A stretch of 64,000 nt of DNA from Candidatus Zixiibacteriota bacterium (GCA_030668485.1 DAOUTW010000006.1:6717-70716), one strand, 5' to 3'. Shown: positions 7,236 to 15,841, counted from the stretch's first letter. The notes: generated from the letters alone by a model not told the origin. A program made the numbers and translations.

Positions 7236-8558
7236 ATGGGTGAAAAGTGTCAGGGGAGCACGAAATCGGGCGAGCCATGCAAGAAAAACGCTGTTAAAGG
7301 CGAAGGATATTGCCGGACTCATTTATATCAAAAATATGAGAAAGGCACGAAAAGGGCATGGCTCAGGCTTGGCAGTTTCATTACGCATCCCGTAGTGCTG
7401 ACAATTCTGGGACTATGTGCAGTAGTCAGTGTCTATTATGCTGTCAGGTCATCGCAAACGTCAGTCACGAAAGAAGATGTGCCTCAATTAATCGATGAAG
7501 CGATACGGGCGCGTGATGAGCGGACGGGGATACTGCCACCAAAGACCTTTGAGGAAATTCTGGATGCGACGGGGATGACATGCCCCGAAATCGGCCAGGC
7601 GGTGTGCGACAAAATTAAGGCTGCGGGTGAAGCGATTGCCGAGGGGCGTTATGCTGACGCGGTGCGAATGTATGAAGCCTTGATAGAAGTATTTTCGGAC
7701 GTGAATGACCAACCGCTAAAATATAATATGGGTTTGTCTTATTACTATGCGGGAAAATATTACAAGGCCTGTGACATATTTGCGGAACTGCTTGAAAAAA
7801 CCTCCGATGACCCGGCGGTTTTATCTGGCATGGGCCTTGCATTATTGTGTGGGGGAAACTACGAGCAGGCCGAATCGCATATTAACCGGGCAATTGAGAT
7901 CGGGAAAAAGACACTTGGTGAGGATCATCCCGATTATGCCAAGTGGCTAAACAATCTCGCGGAATTGTATCGTGCACAGGGGAAATACGGAGAAGCAGAG
8001 TCGTTGTATGAACGAGTGCTAGAAATTAATGAGACGGCCCTTGGTGAAAACCATCCAAATATGGCTGCAGCATTGAACAATCACGCATTATTATATAAAT
8101 CACAGGGGAAATATGCCGAGGCGGAGCCGTTATATAAGCGGGCGATAGAGATAGACAAAAAAGCCTTGGGGCCAGATCATCCAGATTTTGCCATCGACCT
8201 CAATAATCTCGCAGAAGTGTATCGTAAACAGGGGAAGTACGCCGAGGCGGAACCTTTGTATAAGCGGGCGCTTGAGATAGACGAAAAGGCATTAGGACCA
8301 AATGAACCCGGACTTGCCACCGACTTGAACAACCTTGCGCAATTGTATCGTGCACAGGGAAAATACGCCAAGGCCGAACCGTTATTTATGCGGGCGTTGG
8401 CAATTTTTGAAACAAATAATCTGACAGGTCATTCGAATTTTGCAACCCTGCTGGGAAATGTTGAGATCATGTACCGCGAATGGGGGAAGGAAGAGGAGGC
8501 GCGGAAGTATGAGAAGAGGCTGGCGGAGATAAAGGGAGAATCTGAACAGGGCGAATGA
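7236..8558 (+). CDS. TPR-repeat protein (kinesin-light-chain-like TPR_12 repeats) with N-terminal Cys/His motif and one TM helix
   Basis: About seven repeats of the type NNLAELYRAQGKYGEAESLYERVLEI..ALGxxHP. N-terminus GEKCQGSTKSGEPCKKNAVKGEGYCRTH has C-x10-C-x12-C-x2-H spacing. Hydrophobic segment VVLTILGLCAVVSVYYAV follows. The overlapping ORF 7105..7395 is rejected because it covers repeat A. Confidence 0.85.
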   Translation: MGEKCQGSTKSGEPCKKNAVKGEGYCRTHLYQKYEKGTKRAWLRLGSFITHPVVLTILGLCAVVSVYYAVRSSQTSVTKEDVPQLIDEAIRARDERTGILPPKTFEEILDATGMTCPEIGQAVCDKIKAAGEAIAEGRYADAVRMYEALIEVFSDVNDQPLKYNMGLSYYYAGKYYKACDIFAELLEKTSDDPAVLSGMGLALLCGGNYEQAESHINRAIEIGKKTLGEDHPDYAKWLNNLAELYRAQGKYGEAESLYERVLEINETALGENHPNMAAALNNHALLYKSQGKYAEAEPLYKRAIEIDKKALGPDHPDFAIDLNNLAEVYRKQGKYAEAEPLYKRALEIDEKALGPNEPGLATDLNNLAQLYRAQGKYAKAEPLFMRALAIFETNNLTGHSNFATLLGNVEIMYREWGKEEEARKYEKRLAEIKGESEQGE

Positions 8559-12262: not shown

Positions 12263-14521
12263 ATGAAATCATCATCTTCCAAGAAACCGGATGTCCGGTC
12301 CGAATTGCTGCGGCAACTGTCGTGTGCGGTTCGATTCCGGGATATCTCCGGAGGACTGCGCCTGGCTGAAAAATGTCAGGATGCGATGTCCGATCGGAGC
12401 GATCCCACGGCTGGACAATTACGGCGTCTTGAGGCTGAGCTGCTTTATATTTCTCATGATTATAAAAAAGCCCTCGCATCCGCCCGTCTTGCAGCCTCTT
12501 TGCTGGAGCCCTTCGGGGAAACGGCGGAACTGGCTGAAGTGTTTTTATTGACGGGTAAAGCGTTGATTAATCTTGGAAATTATAAAGAAGCGGAAACCGC
12601 CTTTTTGGACGCTAAGTCGCTTTTCAGGCGAAACGACAACAATTCGGGGAATATTGACGCGGCCAACCAACTGGCCCGGGTCTATTTCACCCGATCTGAG
12701 TATCAAAACGCGATTAAATATCTCCTGGAAGCGGTCAAGCTGGCTGAACAGTTGGGCGACAAACGCCAACTGGCTTTTCTCTGGGGTAATATCGGCCGTG
12801 TTTATACGCTGATGGGTAATTTCAAGAGAGCAGCCGAAGCGCTCATGATGAATATCGATATCTCCGCGGAACTCGGAGATGACAAGGAGCGAGCCAAGGC
12901 ACTGCTTTCGATCGGCTATATTGAAATGCAGTCGGAGCAGTACGAGAAGGCTGCCGAACATTTCGAACAAGCCCAACCGCTGCTGATCAAAGAAGAGCTG
13001 CGGCGTGAAACCGCAATTTACAAGACCTATTGCGGTGAGCTAAAAATCAGGTGCGGTCAACATTCAAATGCCCGACGCCTGCTGAATGATGCGATCAAGA
13101 TAGCCAAATCTCTCTCGCCCGAATCGTCACTGCTGGTAACTCCGATTCGGCACCTGGCCGAACTGGAACTGGCCTTAAAGAAATACAGTGAGGCTTCAAG
13201 GTTGGCTGAGCGGGCTTTGGCGTTGGCACAGAAGGTCGGTGAGGCGGCTGAAGAAGGCGCTGCACTGCGCATTCTGGCCCGCGCAGCCCTTGGCAAAAGC
13301 AAGTCGTCTGCCAAAGATCGGTCAAAGGCCATCGACCTGTTCTCTCGCGCTCTGAATATTTTTGAAGAAATCGGGGCACGCTTTGAACGGGCCGAGACGC
13401 TTGTAATGATGGCGACCTGCGGCATGGGATCGCCTCGGCGGAGGCTGGCCAACCTGTTCCGGGCTCATGATCTTTATAAACAAATGGGAATCGACACCAA
13501 GTATGAGCAAACCCAGAATCTTATCAACCGGGCCGATGCTCCCAATCCGGCGCTGGATTCGCAAGACCAGGGATTGCCGGAGGAGAATCGTAAGTTCATA
13601 ACTGCCAACCGGCAAATAAAGAAGGCCCTCGGACACCTTGAGACGGCAGCACATTCCGAATTGCCGGTACTGTTGATCGGAGAAACCGGCACCGGCAAGG
13701 ATCTCCTGGCCAAACATTATCACCGGCATTCCGGCCGCAAAGGGGAATTCGTCGCGGTCAACTGTGCCGCCTTCCCTGAGACTCTTCTGGAATCGGAGCT
13801 GTTCGGTTACCGCAAAGGCGCTTTTACCGGCGCATCCGCGGACAAGCAAGGTCTTTTCCACAGAGCCAACGGCGGCACATTTTTCCTTGATGAAATAGGT
13901 GAGTTGTCGCATGCTTCGCAGGCCAAGCTGCTGACGGTTCTCGAAACCCGCCGAGCGCGAAGGCTGGGCGACACCGCTGAAGATAAACTTGACATCAGGT
14001 TTATCGCCGCAACCAATTGTGACCTGTCCGCCATGGTAGAGGCGGGAACTTTCCGTCGCGATCTGTATTATCGTCTCAGCGGTATCCAATTCAGGATTCC
14101 TCCGCTGTCAGAACGCCCTGAGGATATACCTCTTTTGCTCCACCATTTTCTGATCAAAGAGGGCGTTGCCGGCGAAAACGAGCAGATCGACCCTGCCCTG
14201 ATCGGCGAATTCTCATCACGGTCATGGCCGGGCAATGTTCGGCAACTTGAATCGGAAGTGCGTAAACTGGCCCTATTTTCGACCATGGCCCGCGAGGACT
14301 CGCTGGGCGATCTGGCCGGTGTCCTGATTCAAGATGACTCTGATAGTCATACCGTATCGTTATTCAACCAGGTTGAACAGTTTGAACGTGGCCTTATTCT
14401 CAAGGCTCTTAAACAATCGAACTGGAATAAATCGCAGGCGGCTCGTTCATTATCGATTCACGAATCGACTTTGCGAGCCAAAATGAAGCGATACGATATT
14501 CACGAAACCGCGATTTCGTAA
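12263..14521 (+). CDS. Sigma-54-dependent transcriptional activator (bacterial enhancer-binding protein) with N-terminal TPR-like sensor region instead of a receiver domain
   Basis: Motifs: Walker A GETGTGKD, GAFTGA loop (RKGAFTGAS), Walker B FFLDEIGE, and C-terminal Fis-type HTH NWNKSQAARSLSIHESTLRAKMKRY. The first ~440 aa are helical TPR-like repeats. Confidence 0.92.
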   Translation: MKSSSSKKPDVRSELLRQLSCAVRFRDISGGLRLAEKCQDAMSDRSDPTAGQLRRLEAELLYISHDYKKALASARLAASLLEPFGETAELAEVFLLTGKALINLGNYKEAETAFLDAKSLFRRNDNNSGNIDAANQLARVYFTRSEYQNAIKYLLEAVKLAEQLGDKRQLAFLWGNIGRVYTLMGNFKRAAEALMMNIDISAELGDDKERAKALLSIGYIEMQSEQYEKAAEHFEQAQPLLIKEELRRETAIYKTYCGELKIRCGQHSNARRLLNDAIKIAKSLSPESSLLVTPIRHLAELELALKKYSEASRLAERALALAQKVGEAAEEGAALRILARAALGKSKSSAKDRSKAIDLFSRALNIFEEIGARFERAETLVMMATCGMGSPRRRLANLFRAHDLYKQMGIDTKYEQTQNLINRADAPNPALDSQDQGLPEENRKFITANRQIKKALGHLETAAHSELPVLLIGETGTGKDLLAKHYHRHSGRKGEFVAVNCAAFPETLLESELFGYRKGAFTGASADKQGLFHRANGGTFFLDEIGELSHASQAKLLTVLETRRARRLGDTAEDKLDIRFIAATNCDLSAMVEAGTFRRDLYYRLSGIQFRIPPLSERPEDIPLLLHHFLIKEGVAGENEQIDPALIGEFSSRSWPGNVRQLESEVRKLALFSTMAREDSLGDLAGVLIQDDSDSHTVSLFNQVEQFERGLILKALKQSNWNKSQAARSLSIHESTLRAKMKRYDIHETAIS

Positions 14522-14537
14522 ATTCATACGAAATCGC
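14510..14537. promoter_or_regulatory. Perfect 11-bp inverted repeat (candidate EBP upstream activating site 1)
   Basis: GCGATTTCGTA-aattca-TACGAAATCGC overlaps the EBP stop codon. It lies about 190 nt upstream of the -24/-12 element. Confidence 0.45.
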
Positions 14538-14556
14538 ACAGAATCTGTGCCTTATG

Positions 14557-14590
14557 ATAAGCGCATGAATAACATGCGCTTATCTTTTTT
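14557..14590 (+). terminator. Rho-independent terminator of the EBP gene
   Basis: Perfect 11-bp stem ATAAGCGCATG/CATGCGCTTAT, 5-nt loop, followed by CTTTTTT. Confidence 0.7.
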
Positions 14591-14596
14591 ATGAGA

Positions 14597-14622
14597 AATT
14601 TCTCGTAATCTCATACGAAATT
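14597..14622. promoter_or_regulatory. Imperfect second copy of the TTTCGTA-N6-TACGAAA palindrome (candidate UAS 2)
   Basis: aaatttcTCgta-atctca-tacgaaatt. It shares half-sites with 14510..14537 and lies about 100 nt upstream of the -24/-12 element. Confidence 0.4.
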
Positions 14623-14709
14623 AGAGATTTCCCAAGAATCCTTAGCAATCGTCATAACACATTATCATACAATAGCATAGAGTGATAATTGCATCTTATA
14701 TGCAACTTA

Positions 14710-14725
14710 GGGCATACCTCTTGCT
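14710..14725 (+). promoter_or_regulatory. Candidate sigma-54 (-24/-12) promoter
   Basis: gGGCAtacctcTTGCT has GG and GC separated by exactly 10 nt, as in the TGGCAC-N5-TTGCW consensus. It is the only such match I found in the window and sits immediately downstream of the EBP gene and its palindromes. Confidence 0.45.
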
Positions 14726-14735
14726 CTAGATATAT

Positions 14736-14831
14736 ATGTCATTTATAGCTCCTTTTGCGCTGCTTTAAGTAGTCCTTTTTTCTCGGAAAAGCCGCCCGTG
14801 CCAGAGGGGTGCACGGGTGGCTTGCTTTTTA
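14736..14831 (+). ncRNA. Candidate sigma-54-dependent small RNA (about 95 nt), speculative
   Basis: The predicted TSS lies about 12 nt after the -12 GC. The transcript would end at hairpin GCCGCCCGTGC/GCACGGGTGGC followed by TTGCTTTTT (14792..14831). It carries CU-rich stretches (CTCCTTTT, TCCTTTTTTCTC) complementary to the AAGGAG/GGAGG RBSs used in this window. The only ORF inside is a 10-codon ATG ORF without an RBS. Confidence 0.25.
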
Positions 14832-14908
14832 AAGCCACTCATTTGCCATTTCCTATTATATCACTCAAAAATGAAATTGTGATTCAAAAGTGTTGATCTT
14901 GATCCGCG

Positions 14909-15457
14909 ATGCGAATATCTTGTGGGATGGATAATTACAACGAGCAACGACGGAAGCAACTGGCAGAATTTTCCAAAGAGCAACTGATCGGTATGCTTGA
15001 AGATGCCGCCAAAAACTGGCTGGCCCACGACGGCCTTTGGTTCCTGGCGGTGGAGGCCGATCACGGCATGGAAACCGCTATCAAGCATGACCGTACCGCC
15101 TGGGAAAAATTTACGGTTATCGAGGCAAAGCGGATTATGAGGCGCCACGGTATCGAACCTGGATCAGGATTGGATGGTCTCAAAAAGGCCCTTCAGTATC
15201 GGCAATACGCTCATTTGAATATTCAGACGATTGTCGATGAAACCGAAAACAGCTTTGTTTTCAGGATGAACGATTGCCGGGTCCAGGCGGCTCGCAAGCG
15301 CGACAATCGGCCCGATTTCCCCTGCAAACCGGTCGGTCTGGTGGAATATGCTCGATTTGCCGAAACAATCGATCCCCGCATAAAAACGGAATGTATTTGC
15401 TGCCCGCCGGATAAGCATCCGGATCAATATTACTGCGCCTGGAAATTCAGCCTTTAA
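14909..15457 (+). CDS. Conserved hypothetical cytosolic protein (possibly DUF6125-like; family uncertain)
   Basis: 182-aa ORF with KNWLAHDGLWFLAVEADHGMETAIKHDRTAWEKFTVIEAKRIM and a C-terminal Cys cluster CICCPPD. The start could also be the ATG at 14927. Confidence 0.6.
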   Translation: MRISCGMDNYNEQRRKQLAEFSKEQLIGMLEDAAKNWLAHDGLWFLAVEADHGMETAIKHDRTAWEKFTVIEAKRIMRRHGIEPGSGLDGLKKALQYRQYAHLNIQTIVDETENSFVFRMNDCRVQAARKRDNRPDFPCKPVGLVEYARFAETIDPRIKTECICCPPDKHPDQYYCAWKFSL

Positions 15458-15465
15458 AATACCAC

Positions 15466-15497
15466 AGGCGACCGGCTTGGGGGTTCGCCGGTCGCCT
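15466..15497 (+). terminator. Hairpin terminator candidate
   Basis: 11-bp stem AGGCGACCGGC/GCCGGTCGCCT lies 9 nt after the stop codon. The U tract is weak. Confidence 0.4.
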
Positions 15498-15841
15498 GCT
15501 CTTGCAGGGGCAATTAAGGCAAGGAGGTTACCTTACACCGGGCTTTAGGGGAAGCCCGGTGTAAGAGAAAACGGTTTGGCTCATGATGTAGAGTTCCTGG
15601 TGTCGATTCGCTCAATCCGCTTTCCATTACTTTATAACCCAGTCAGCCCCTCATTGGTTCCTTTTTAATCTTCTTTTTATTCCAAATACAGCTTTATTTT
15701 TCGCACCATTTTTGCAATTGTTTTCCTGTTTAAAAGCTATATATTAATCAGTCTCGTTACTGGCAGAGTCAATGTCTTGGGATTATATAATGACCAGTGG
15801 TCGGTGTTTTTTGGTAAAGCGTAAAGAAATGGACGGACACC

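Follow-up and report, generated by a model that had tools for sequence, protein, structure and literature searches.

A sigma-54 activator gene followed by a conserved module

We analyzed a 64,000-nt stretch of DNA from Candidatus Zixiibacteriota bacterium (GCA_030668485.1 DAOUTW010000006.1:6717-70716), which is referred to below as the window, and focused on the gene for a sigma-54 activator with an N-terminal TPR region and on the interval that follows it. At and beyond the end of this gene lie two inverted repeats, the terminator of the activator gene, an AT-rich spacer, a predicted sigma-54 promoter and a candidate small RNA (sRNA) that ends in an intrinsic terminator (Table 1). An initial annotation of the window had listed the palindromes, the activator terminator, the AT-rich stretch and the RNA hairpin with its T-run, and all of them were present when we read positions 14300-15100.

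Table 1. Features of the activator locus, in order of position in the window (UAS, upstream activating sequence; ORF, open reading frame).
Feature	Position	Strand	Description
Small exported protein gene, 126 aa	11877..12257	+	Signal peptide, DEHPWGG motif; abuts activator gene
Sigma-54 enhancer-binding protein gene, 752 aa	12263..14521	+	N-terminal TPR, AAA+ Sigma54_activat, C-terminal HTH_8
UAS1 (predicted), perfect inverted repeat GCGATTTCGTA-N6-TACGAAATCGC	14510..14537		11-nt arms, 100% complementary
Activator-gene intrinsic terminator GATAAGCGCATG / CATGCGCTTATC + T6	14556..14590	+	12-bp stem 14556-14584; T-run to 14590
UAS2 (predicted), second inverted-repeat copy	14596..14622		Core TCGTAATCTCATACGA at 14603-14618
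AT-rich spacer, UAS2 to promoter	14623..14710		69% A+T vs 50% in the window; presumed looping/bending region
Sigma-54 promoter GGCATACCTCTTGCT (predicted)	14711..14725	+	-24 GG 14711-12; -12 GC 14723-24
Candidate small RNA, ~95 nt	14736..14831	+	Accessible 5' region, weak hairpin, accessible C/U-rich block, terminator
10-codon ORF MSFIAPFALL	ATG 14736 to TAA 14766-14768	+	At the RNA 5' end
CUCCUUUU tract, candidate seed 1, anti-Shine-Dalgarno-like	14749..14756	+	CC-UU core kept in 17/17; mean unpaired probability ~0.9
UAGUCCUUUUUUCUCGG, candidate seed 2 or U-rich protein (Hfq-type) site	14770..14786	+	Invariant in 17/17; adjoins terminator
RNA intrinsic terminator	14789..14830	+	12-13 bp G+C-rich stem, 9-nt loop with GAGGGG (14804-14809), U-tract
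Sigma-70-like promoter TTGATC-N17-TATCTT (consensus match only)	14893..14929	+	Site 14893-14921, ends 5 nt before ATG 14927
Second conserved RNA-like element	15466-15575	+	Covarying hairpin, ~35-nt invariant block CUGCUCUUGCAGGGGCAAUUAAGGCAAGGAGGUUA, variable hairpin with GGGGAA loop

The product of the activator gene matches the Pfam families Sigma54_activat (PF00158, 3.6e-63), TPR_12 and HTH_8 (PF02954, 4e-13), and contains GAFTGA at residues 519-524 together with ESELFGY and the Walker B sequence FFLDE; no receiver domain was found in the protein. This combination of domains and motifs indicates a complete enhancer-binding protein that lacks a receiver domain. When compared with the named NCBIfam activators, it fell under the cut-off of every one. 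Among NCBI proteins, one has the identical sequence, some 50 full-length ones are 58-88% identical to it, and a second group reaches about 40-49%; the named members are Zixibacteria. DNA around the orthologues was taken from genome contigs (L001-L003), metagenome contigs (L080 and L081) and exact-protein look-ups (L160-L170), and the resulting 17 orthologous loci comprise 16 distinct sequences, L167 being identical to L001 over the module region.

The full module, with its two repeats, -24/-12 promoter and RNA in the same order, is present in all 17 orthologous loci, whose activators are 58-88% identical in amino acid sequence. A covariance model built from 13 of the RNA sequences scored 98-122 bits in its training loci and 80-112 bits in the four loci that were held out. 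No module was found in about 150 other activator loci (~1 Mb), in which the model gave only a 20-bit terminator-like match (L164) that we dismissed, and the TPR paralogues with 44-49% identity have no repeats, promoter or RNA downstream of the activator gene. Once the relatives are counted, the observation is confirmed as real and lies well past chance, and this distribution supports the activator-dependent sRNA that the initial annotation had proposed. A lack of conservation beside orthologous activators, which that annotation had named as grounds for refutation, is not what the loci show.

The predicted promoter and its upstream repeats

The predicted promoter reads GGCA-N6-TTGCT, which corresponds to the canonical GG-N10-GC geometry, and matches the consensus TGGCAC-N5-TTGCW at nine of 12 specified positions. 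A -24/-12 site had been annotated here before, and it is indeed present, but not with the N7 spacing then given to it, because GGCA-N7-TTGCW has no matches. GGCA and TTGCT are invariant in the 16 distinct loci, while four central positions of the spacer use three or four different bases at a fixed spacer length; this is the pattern expected of a sigma-54 promoter and not of a chance match. The significance of the promoter thus lies in its conservation across loci and not in the single match in the window. In the orthologous loci, sequence conservation resumes 12-15 nt past TTGCW, at the predicted +1 of the RNA. Elsewhere in the window, the best match to the full sigma-54 consensus is TGGCATGGGCCTTGCA, with one mismatch, at 7826-7841 on the + strand.

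Farther upstream, the core of UAS1, TCGTA-N6-TACGA (14516-14531), overlaps the TAA stop codon of the activator gene (14519-14521), and the first repeat spans this stop, as TCG-TAA or TCG-TAG, in every orthologous locus. The core is kept in all 16 distinct loci, with its centre 183.5-189.5 bp upstream of the -24 GG (200.5 bp in L003). The UAS2 copy, TCG[TC]N-N6-NACGA, is likewise found in 16/16, centred 95.5-100.5 bp upstream of the GG (110.5 bp in L003). The corresponding distances in the window are 187.5 and 100.5 bp. The two repeats lie 86-90 bp apart among the 16 distinct loci; L003 has both of them moved in concert by 10-12 bp, which amounts to roughly one turn of the helix. Counting both strands, the 64 kb contain two occurrences of TCGTA-N6-TACGA (0.06 expected) and no more, both of them in this module. 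An enhancer is expected to consist of tandem inverted repeats some 80-200 bp before a -24/-12 site, and the repeats here have this arrangement at positions conserved in 16/16 loci.

The activator-gene terminator sits between UAS1 and UAS2. Its stem is the same as in the window in 10 of the 16 distinct loci and one base off in two more; in L160 and L163 it reads GGTAAGCG..CGCTTACC, with pairing retained. Conservation at the sequence level and placement exactly between the repeats are unusual for a plain terminator, and this stem may additionally function as a DNA palindrome or an RNA element. In the orthologous loci, the spacer that separates UAS2 from the promoter is 53-72% A+T, and its length is conserved but its sequence, which cannot be aligned, is not.

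Sequence and fold of the candidate small RNA

Positions 14736-14832 fold with a free energy of -31.7 kcal/mol (z = -2.06), about 53 nt from ~14736 having little predicted structure and being followed by a 12-13-bp hairpin. Mean column identity is 82% in the alignment of 13 RNA sequences. Partition-function folding of all homologues left the 5' end, CCUUUU and UCCUUUUUUCUC unpaired with a probability of ~0.9. Of the CUCCUU-type tracts that had been noted in this interval, CUCCUU itself lies at 14749-14754, and a second C/U-rich tract, GUCCUUUUUUCUC, at 14772-14784. The GAGGGG of the terminator loop is identical in all 17 RNA sequences, and UUGCGCUGCUU is identical in 16.

The arms of the RNA terminator, at 14789-14801 and 14811-14823, are followed by UUGCUUUUU to ~14830. 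Covariance analysis across related genomes, which the initial annotation had put forward as a check, gave a clear result for this stem: 96.8% of alignment cells are paired and four of 12 pairs show compensatory changes. The covariation score was reached by 0/500 shuffles, and shifted registers were 31-57% paired. A U-rich tail follows the terminator in all loci, and the stem is stable in every homologue. CUCCUU could also pair with GAGGGG as a pseudoknot in 98.7% of cells, in columns that are invariant or show one-sided changes without covariation. This pairing and the weak internal hairpin are compatible with the data, but since the columns are invariant we conclude nothing from either.

No family of Rfam 15, Qrr and any other sigma-54-dependent sRNAs curated there included, overlaps 14736-14831 up to E = 10 in a search over 14000-15500, and there was no hit at the gathering level anywhere in the 64-kb window.

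The downstream genes and the short reading frame

The RNA is directly followed by DUF6125 in the window, L003, L080, L081 and L160. Another 11 loci have an additional gene in between, which encodes an exported protein of ~170-208 aa, and L162 ends before any gene. The RNA is unchanged whichever of the two genes follows, and the gap between the RNA and the next start (34-134 nt) is not conserved. A TTGnnn-N17-TAnnnT site ends 5-8 nt before the next start in seven of 12 loci, six of them found by regular expression (the window, L160, L080, L001, L164 and L165) and L003 by eye. In L163, the distance from the end of such a site is 22 nt to the called start and 10 nt to an ATG that precedes it. The sites are consensus matches only, and their spacing suggests that the downstream genes may be expressed from separate, near-leaderless mRNAs in this lineage. 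The orthologues and the site in the window indicate that the DUF6125 gene of the window likely starts at ATG 14927 (176 aa), so that the start at 14909 in the initial annotation was placed 18 nt too early. No paper on DUF6125 was found in the literature searched.

The 10-codon ORF reported at the predicted start of the RNA, where no credible ORF had been recognized, does exist, but its frame is not kept throughout. MSF[IKL]APFALL is intact in nine of the 16 distinct sequences, and L168 has a stop as its fourth codon. Six sequences do not keep the frame: L003 has no start and carries 4 additional nt, L163 and L165 carry one additional nt, codon 3 is a stop in L166, and the stop codon is missing from L161 and L169. 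Because the next gene varies and in seven of 12 loci is preceded by a promoter-like site of its own, and because the ORF is not kept in six sequences, we favor an independent sRNA over a leader or a peptide gene.

A probable small RNA gene under control of the adjacent activator

Comparison of the loci establishes a conserved architecture, a promoter signature and covariation in the terminator; it also shows that no ORF is conserved and that the RNA is linked to the activator gene and not to the downstream gene. We consider it probable that the module is an independent gene for an sRNA of ~95 nt that is controlled by the activator encoded directly upstream.

Enhancer-binding proteins usually bind far-upstream palindromes as dimers, tandem sites favor hexamer assembly, and a bend in the DNA in between can facilitate looping (PMC6296734). 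At this locus, activator dimers would bind the two TCGTA-N6-TACGA repeats, centred ~100 and ~187 bp before the -24 GG, via HTH_8. A cue received at the TPR domain, possibly tied to the exported protein encoded next to the activator, would lead the activator to oligomerize, to loop over the AT-rich spacer and to open the GGCA-N6-TTGCT promoter in an ATP-driven step. Transcription would run from near 14736 to near 14830, where the G+C-rich hairpin with its U-tract would end it, and the activator-gene terminator, lying between both sites, would keep read-through out of the RNA. The RNA would most likely act in trans, with the accessible CUCCUUUU and UAGUCCUUUUUUCUCGG pairing with purine-rich stretches in mRNAs, for example at ribosome-binding sites. 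A trans-acting, base-pairing sRNA fits because accessible and invariant C/U-rich blocks adjoin a terminator with a U-tail.

Given the complementarity of CUCCUU to AAGGAG, action of the RNA against Shine-Dalgarno (SD) sequences is plausible. SD sites had been described as being used throughout the window; 15 of 35 crude gene starts are preceded by a core SD motif, compared with a background of 11.5%, indicating that SD use is real but not universal. This complementarity does not discriminate among targets, since SD pairing is generic.

Several points weigh against an activator-controlled, base-pairing sRNA. Transcription, the start and size of the RNA, binding by the activator, the signal, the base-pairing mechanism and the targets are predictions made from sequence. 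The promoter motif alone is not rare, with three matches in the window compared with 0.78 expected. The U-tracts are interrupted in several loci, and some read-through is possible. The 5' part of the RNA is near-invariant, and covariation there neither supports nor rejects structure or pairing. With the 10-codon ORF kept in nine of 16 sequences and with some neighboring genes that look leaderless, a peptide is formally possible. Computational target prediction, another check suggested in the initial annotation, brought out no specific target in the window or the loci. An RNAduplex scan of the window gave broad energies (mean -15.2, sd 4.6) with top matches in G+C-rich coding sequence and was uninformative, and an ungapped complementarity scan of all loci gave many 9-12-nt matches, none of them conserved in position except one in an element after DUF6125 that is described below. 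Between the RNA and the strong activator-operon SD (AGAGGAGGAG, at the small-protein gene), pairing extends over only 6-9 bp and is generic, and feedback of the RNA on this operon was rejected as a candidate on those grounds.

Alternative explanations

The leader that the initial annotation had offered as an alternative would be a sigma-54-driven attenuator of the genes for the ~170-aa exported protein, DUF6125, an M24 peptidase and a NUDIX protein, with the hairpin as a conditional terminator. These genes lie on the same strand in a conserved neighborhood, and the interrupted U-tracts make read-through conceivable. However, the same RNA stands before either DUF6125 or the ~170-aa gene across a gap of no fixed length, a promoter-like site intervenes in 7/12 loci, and only the terminator fold is predicted, with a stable stem throughout and no alternative anti-terminator pairing apparent; together with the conserved intrinsic terminator, these features make a leader highly unlikely. 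Translation of the 5' end instead, from a leaderless mRNA for the 10-residue hydrophobic peptide MSF[IKL]APFALL and possibly as part of a dual-function RNA, is very improbable. Codon 4 varies among I, K and L, six of the 16 distinct sequences do not keep the frame, and the best-conserved nucleotides (UAGUCCUUUUUUCUCGG) lie past the stop codon, although an ATG or GTG does occupy the predicted +1 in 16 of 17 loci, the 10-codon frame is kept in nine of 16, and leaderless-type promoters are seemingly used nearby.

The C/U-rich tracts themselves admit two further explanations. CT-rich motifs near sigma-54 promoters have been reported to silence downstream translation through SD pairing (bioRxiv 10.1101/086108), and the tracts could be cis-acting insulators of this kind, which sequester a nearby SD in read-through transcripts. 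We ruled this out on geometry as scarcely credible: the mechanism needs the motif within ~25 nt of the SD, whereas here the terminator and ~95 nt or more lie between, the activator terminator already blocks read-through, and the next gene is apparently without a leader. The other explanation, a protein-binding or structural RNA whose GAGGGG loop and U/C-rich tract titrate or recruit a protein, or whose loop forms the pseudoknot with CUCCUU, is unlikely. An invariant GAGGGG within a 9-nt loop is unusual for a simple terminator, the pseudoknot pairing is available in nearly every cell of the alignment, and the scans of the window and loci found no specific mRNA target. On the other side, each motif is present in one copy, without the repeated sites of CsrB- or CrcZ-type sponges, the pseudoknot columns do not covary, and the data name no partner protein. 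An independent sRNA controlled by the adjacent activator is our preferred reading.

An exported-protein gene directly upstream of the activator gene

In each of the 12 loci for which upstream sequence was available, the gene that adjoins the activator gene on its upstream side encodes a protein of 107-135 aa. The protein has a signal peptide and, 15-25 residues past the predicted cleavage site, a DEHPWGG(E)H motif in which P, W and G are invariant in the alignment; we refer to it as the HPW protein. It had no match in Pfam or NCBIfam. Paralogous TPR activators without the sRNA (L004-L006, L084, L086 and L088) have a similar protein upstream, with the motif ..GHPWDDG... Across both activator groups the motif reads [DE][EG][HQ]PW[GD], and the gene is always directly upstream of the TPR activator. 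Since the same type of protein precedes both the orthologues and the 44-49% paralogues, the HPW exported protein and the TPR sigma-54 activator form a conserved cassette. The HPW protein gene is likely an operon partner of the activator gene, and its product is possibly the cognate signal, cue or partner of the TPR domain; that the protein, or a peptide derived from it, is the cue is speculation.

Two of the paralogous loci have, on the + strand, a -24/-12-like site, TGGTACGCCGGTTGCT or GGGTACGCTTGTTGCT, with a conserved CAGCGCAnAnTTTGCGGCGCAG after it (L006, 2289-2304; L086, 1813-1828); the gene for the small exported protein lies ~165 nt farther downstream. Judged by this site, the exported-protein operon of the paralogous loci may be under sigma-54 control.

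In RRNPP-type sensing, a small exported pro-peptide encoded beside its TPR receptor is processed, re-imported and bound by that receptor. The cassette resembles such systems in that a cytoplasmic TPR regulator is encoded beside a gene for a small signal-peptide protein with a short conserved motif. It differs in its output, which here is a sigma-54 AAA+ activator and in RRNPP an HTH domain or a phosphatase, and in domain order. The partner is also larger (107-135 aa compared with ~40-50 aa), and its motif lies near the mature N-terminus. A self-contained circuit, in which an extracellular HPW protein or peptide is sensed by the TPR domain, directly or after re-import, and the sRNA is the main or only output, is decidedly unlikely. 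If true, it would be a peptide-based functional analogue of the LuxO-Qrr quorum-sensing switch of Vibrio that evolved independently in an uncultivated phylum.

A second conserved element after DUF6125

A second conserved RNA-like element starts ~10 nt past the stop codon of DUF6125 and is present in all 15 distinct loci that extend beyond that stop (the window, L001-L003, L080, L081, L160, L161 and L163-L170). Its central block, CUGCUCUUGCAGGGGCAAUUAAGGCAAGGAGGUUA, is nucleotide-identical across these 15 loci. No Rfam match was found for the element, which looks like an undescribed structured RNA or 3'-UTR (untranslated region) element. At the DUF6125 stop, the context CCUUUAAAA and the following hairpin (15442-15512, + strand) weakly resemble a viral frameshift element at a score below threshold (20 bits, E = 0.12), in all likelihood by chance, given that this hairpin forms the first stem of the second conserved element.

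The invariant block can pair with conserved parts of the sRNA over 6 + 9 + 5 bp, and the element could be a partner or target of the sRNA. This pairing ranks first or second in two of 12 loci and otherwise within the top 1-6%, with z-scores of -1.2 to -4.6, and the element carries no change that compensates for the divergent sRNA of L169. The link is weak, because a first or second rank is reached in only two loci and because L169 is uncompensated.

Relation to known sigma-54-dependent small RNAs

The Qrr RNAs are short, terminated sRNAs of ~100 nt that are encoded beside a sigma-54 activator gene and base-pair through conserved single-stranded regions. In Vibrio quorum sensing, they depend on LuxO (PMC4878744, PMC11407668). 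The module described here is similar in that a short, terminated RNA, predicted to be driven by the activator, is encoded beside the activator gene. It differs in that the activator has no receiver domain and scores 197.7 bits, compared with the 800-bit cut-off of the LuxO equivalog, that the RNA has no match to Qrr in Rfam, and that there is one copy per locus with the genes in tandem.

In Myxococcus xanthus, the 108-nt Pxr RNA is encoded 262 nt downstream of nla19, and a sigma-54 promoter precedes its gene (PMC5568312). The two systems share an activator gene followed by an intergenic region of ~200-260 nt with a sigma-54 promoter and a same-strand RNA of ~100 nt, and in both the RNA is conserved together with the activator, for Pxr across genera (PMC5568312). 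By contrast, Pxr has three stem-loops, whereas the RNA here is mostly single-stranded before one terminator and shares no sequence or Rfam similarity with it; Nla19 is described as a response regulator, whereas the activator here has a TPR input; and the phyla are different.

NrsZ, encoded between ntrC and PA5126, and the CbrB-dependent CrcZ and CrcY of Pseudomonas likewise have RpoN promoters and an NtrC-family activator (PMC4253122, PMC6296734). The adjacency of ntrC to the NrsZ gene matches the present layout, but NrsZ is processed from a repeat-containing precursor, whereas the RNA here is short and single-module. CbrB, on which crcZ and crcY depend, activates crcZ and binds non-palindromic subsites (PMC6296734), in contrast to the classic tandem palindromes found here, and CrcZ is a protein sponge of ~400 nt.

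Because neither sequence nor fold is shared with these RNAs, the activator carries a TPR and not a receiver domain, and the phylum is another, we assign the RNA to a new family and to no named one. It is a previously undescribed RNA family, although the layout of a sigma-54-dependent sRNA adjacent to its activator is already known from Qrr, Pxr, NrsZ and CrcZ. We found no mention of an sRNA in Zixibacteria in the literature searched.

The finding is an extension of a known theme and not a conceptual surprise. Few sigma-54-dependent sRNAs are listed as being encoded beside their activators; the new family would be added to them and would extend this layout to a TPR input domain in place of a phospho-receiver. 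The covariance model can be used for the annotation of metagenomes and for comparative target prediction. Gene regulation in Zixibacteria, a phylum without a cultured, genetically tractable member, is almost undescribed, and here a complete regulatory unit, consisting of activator, site, promoter and RNA, can be predicted from its sequence and could be rebuilt in a heterologous host.

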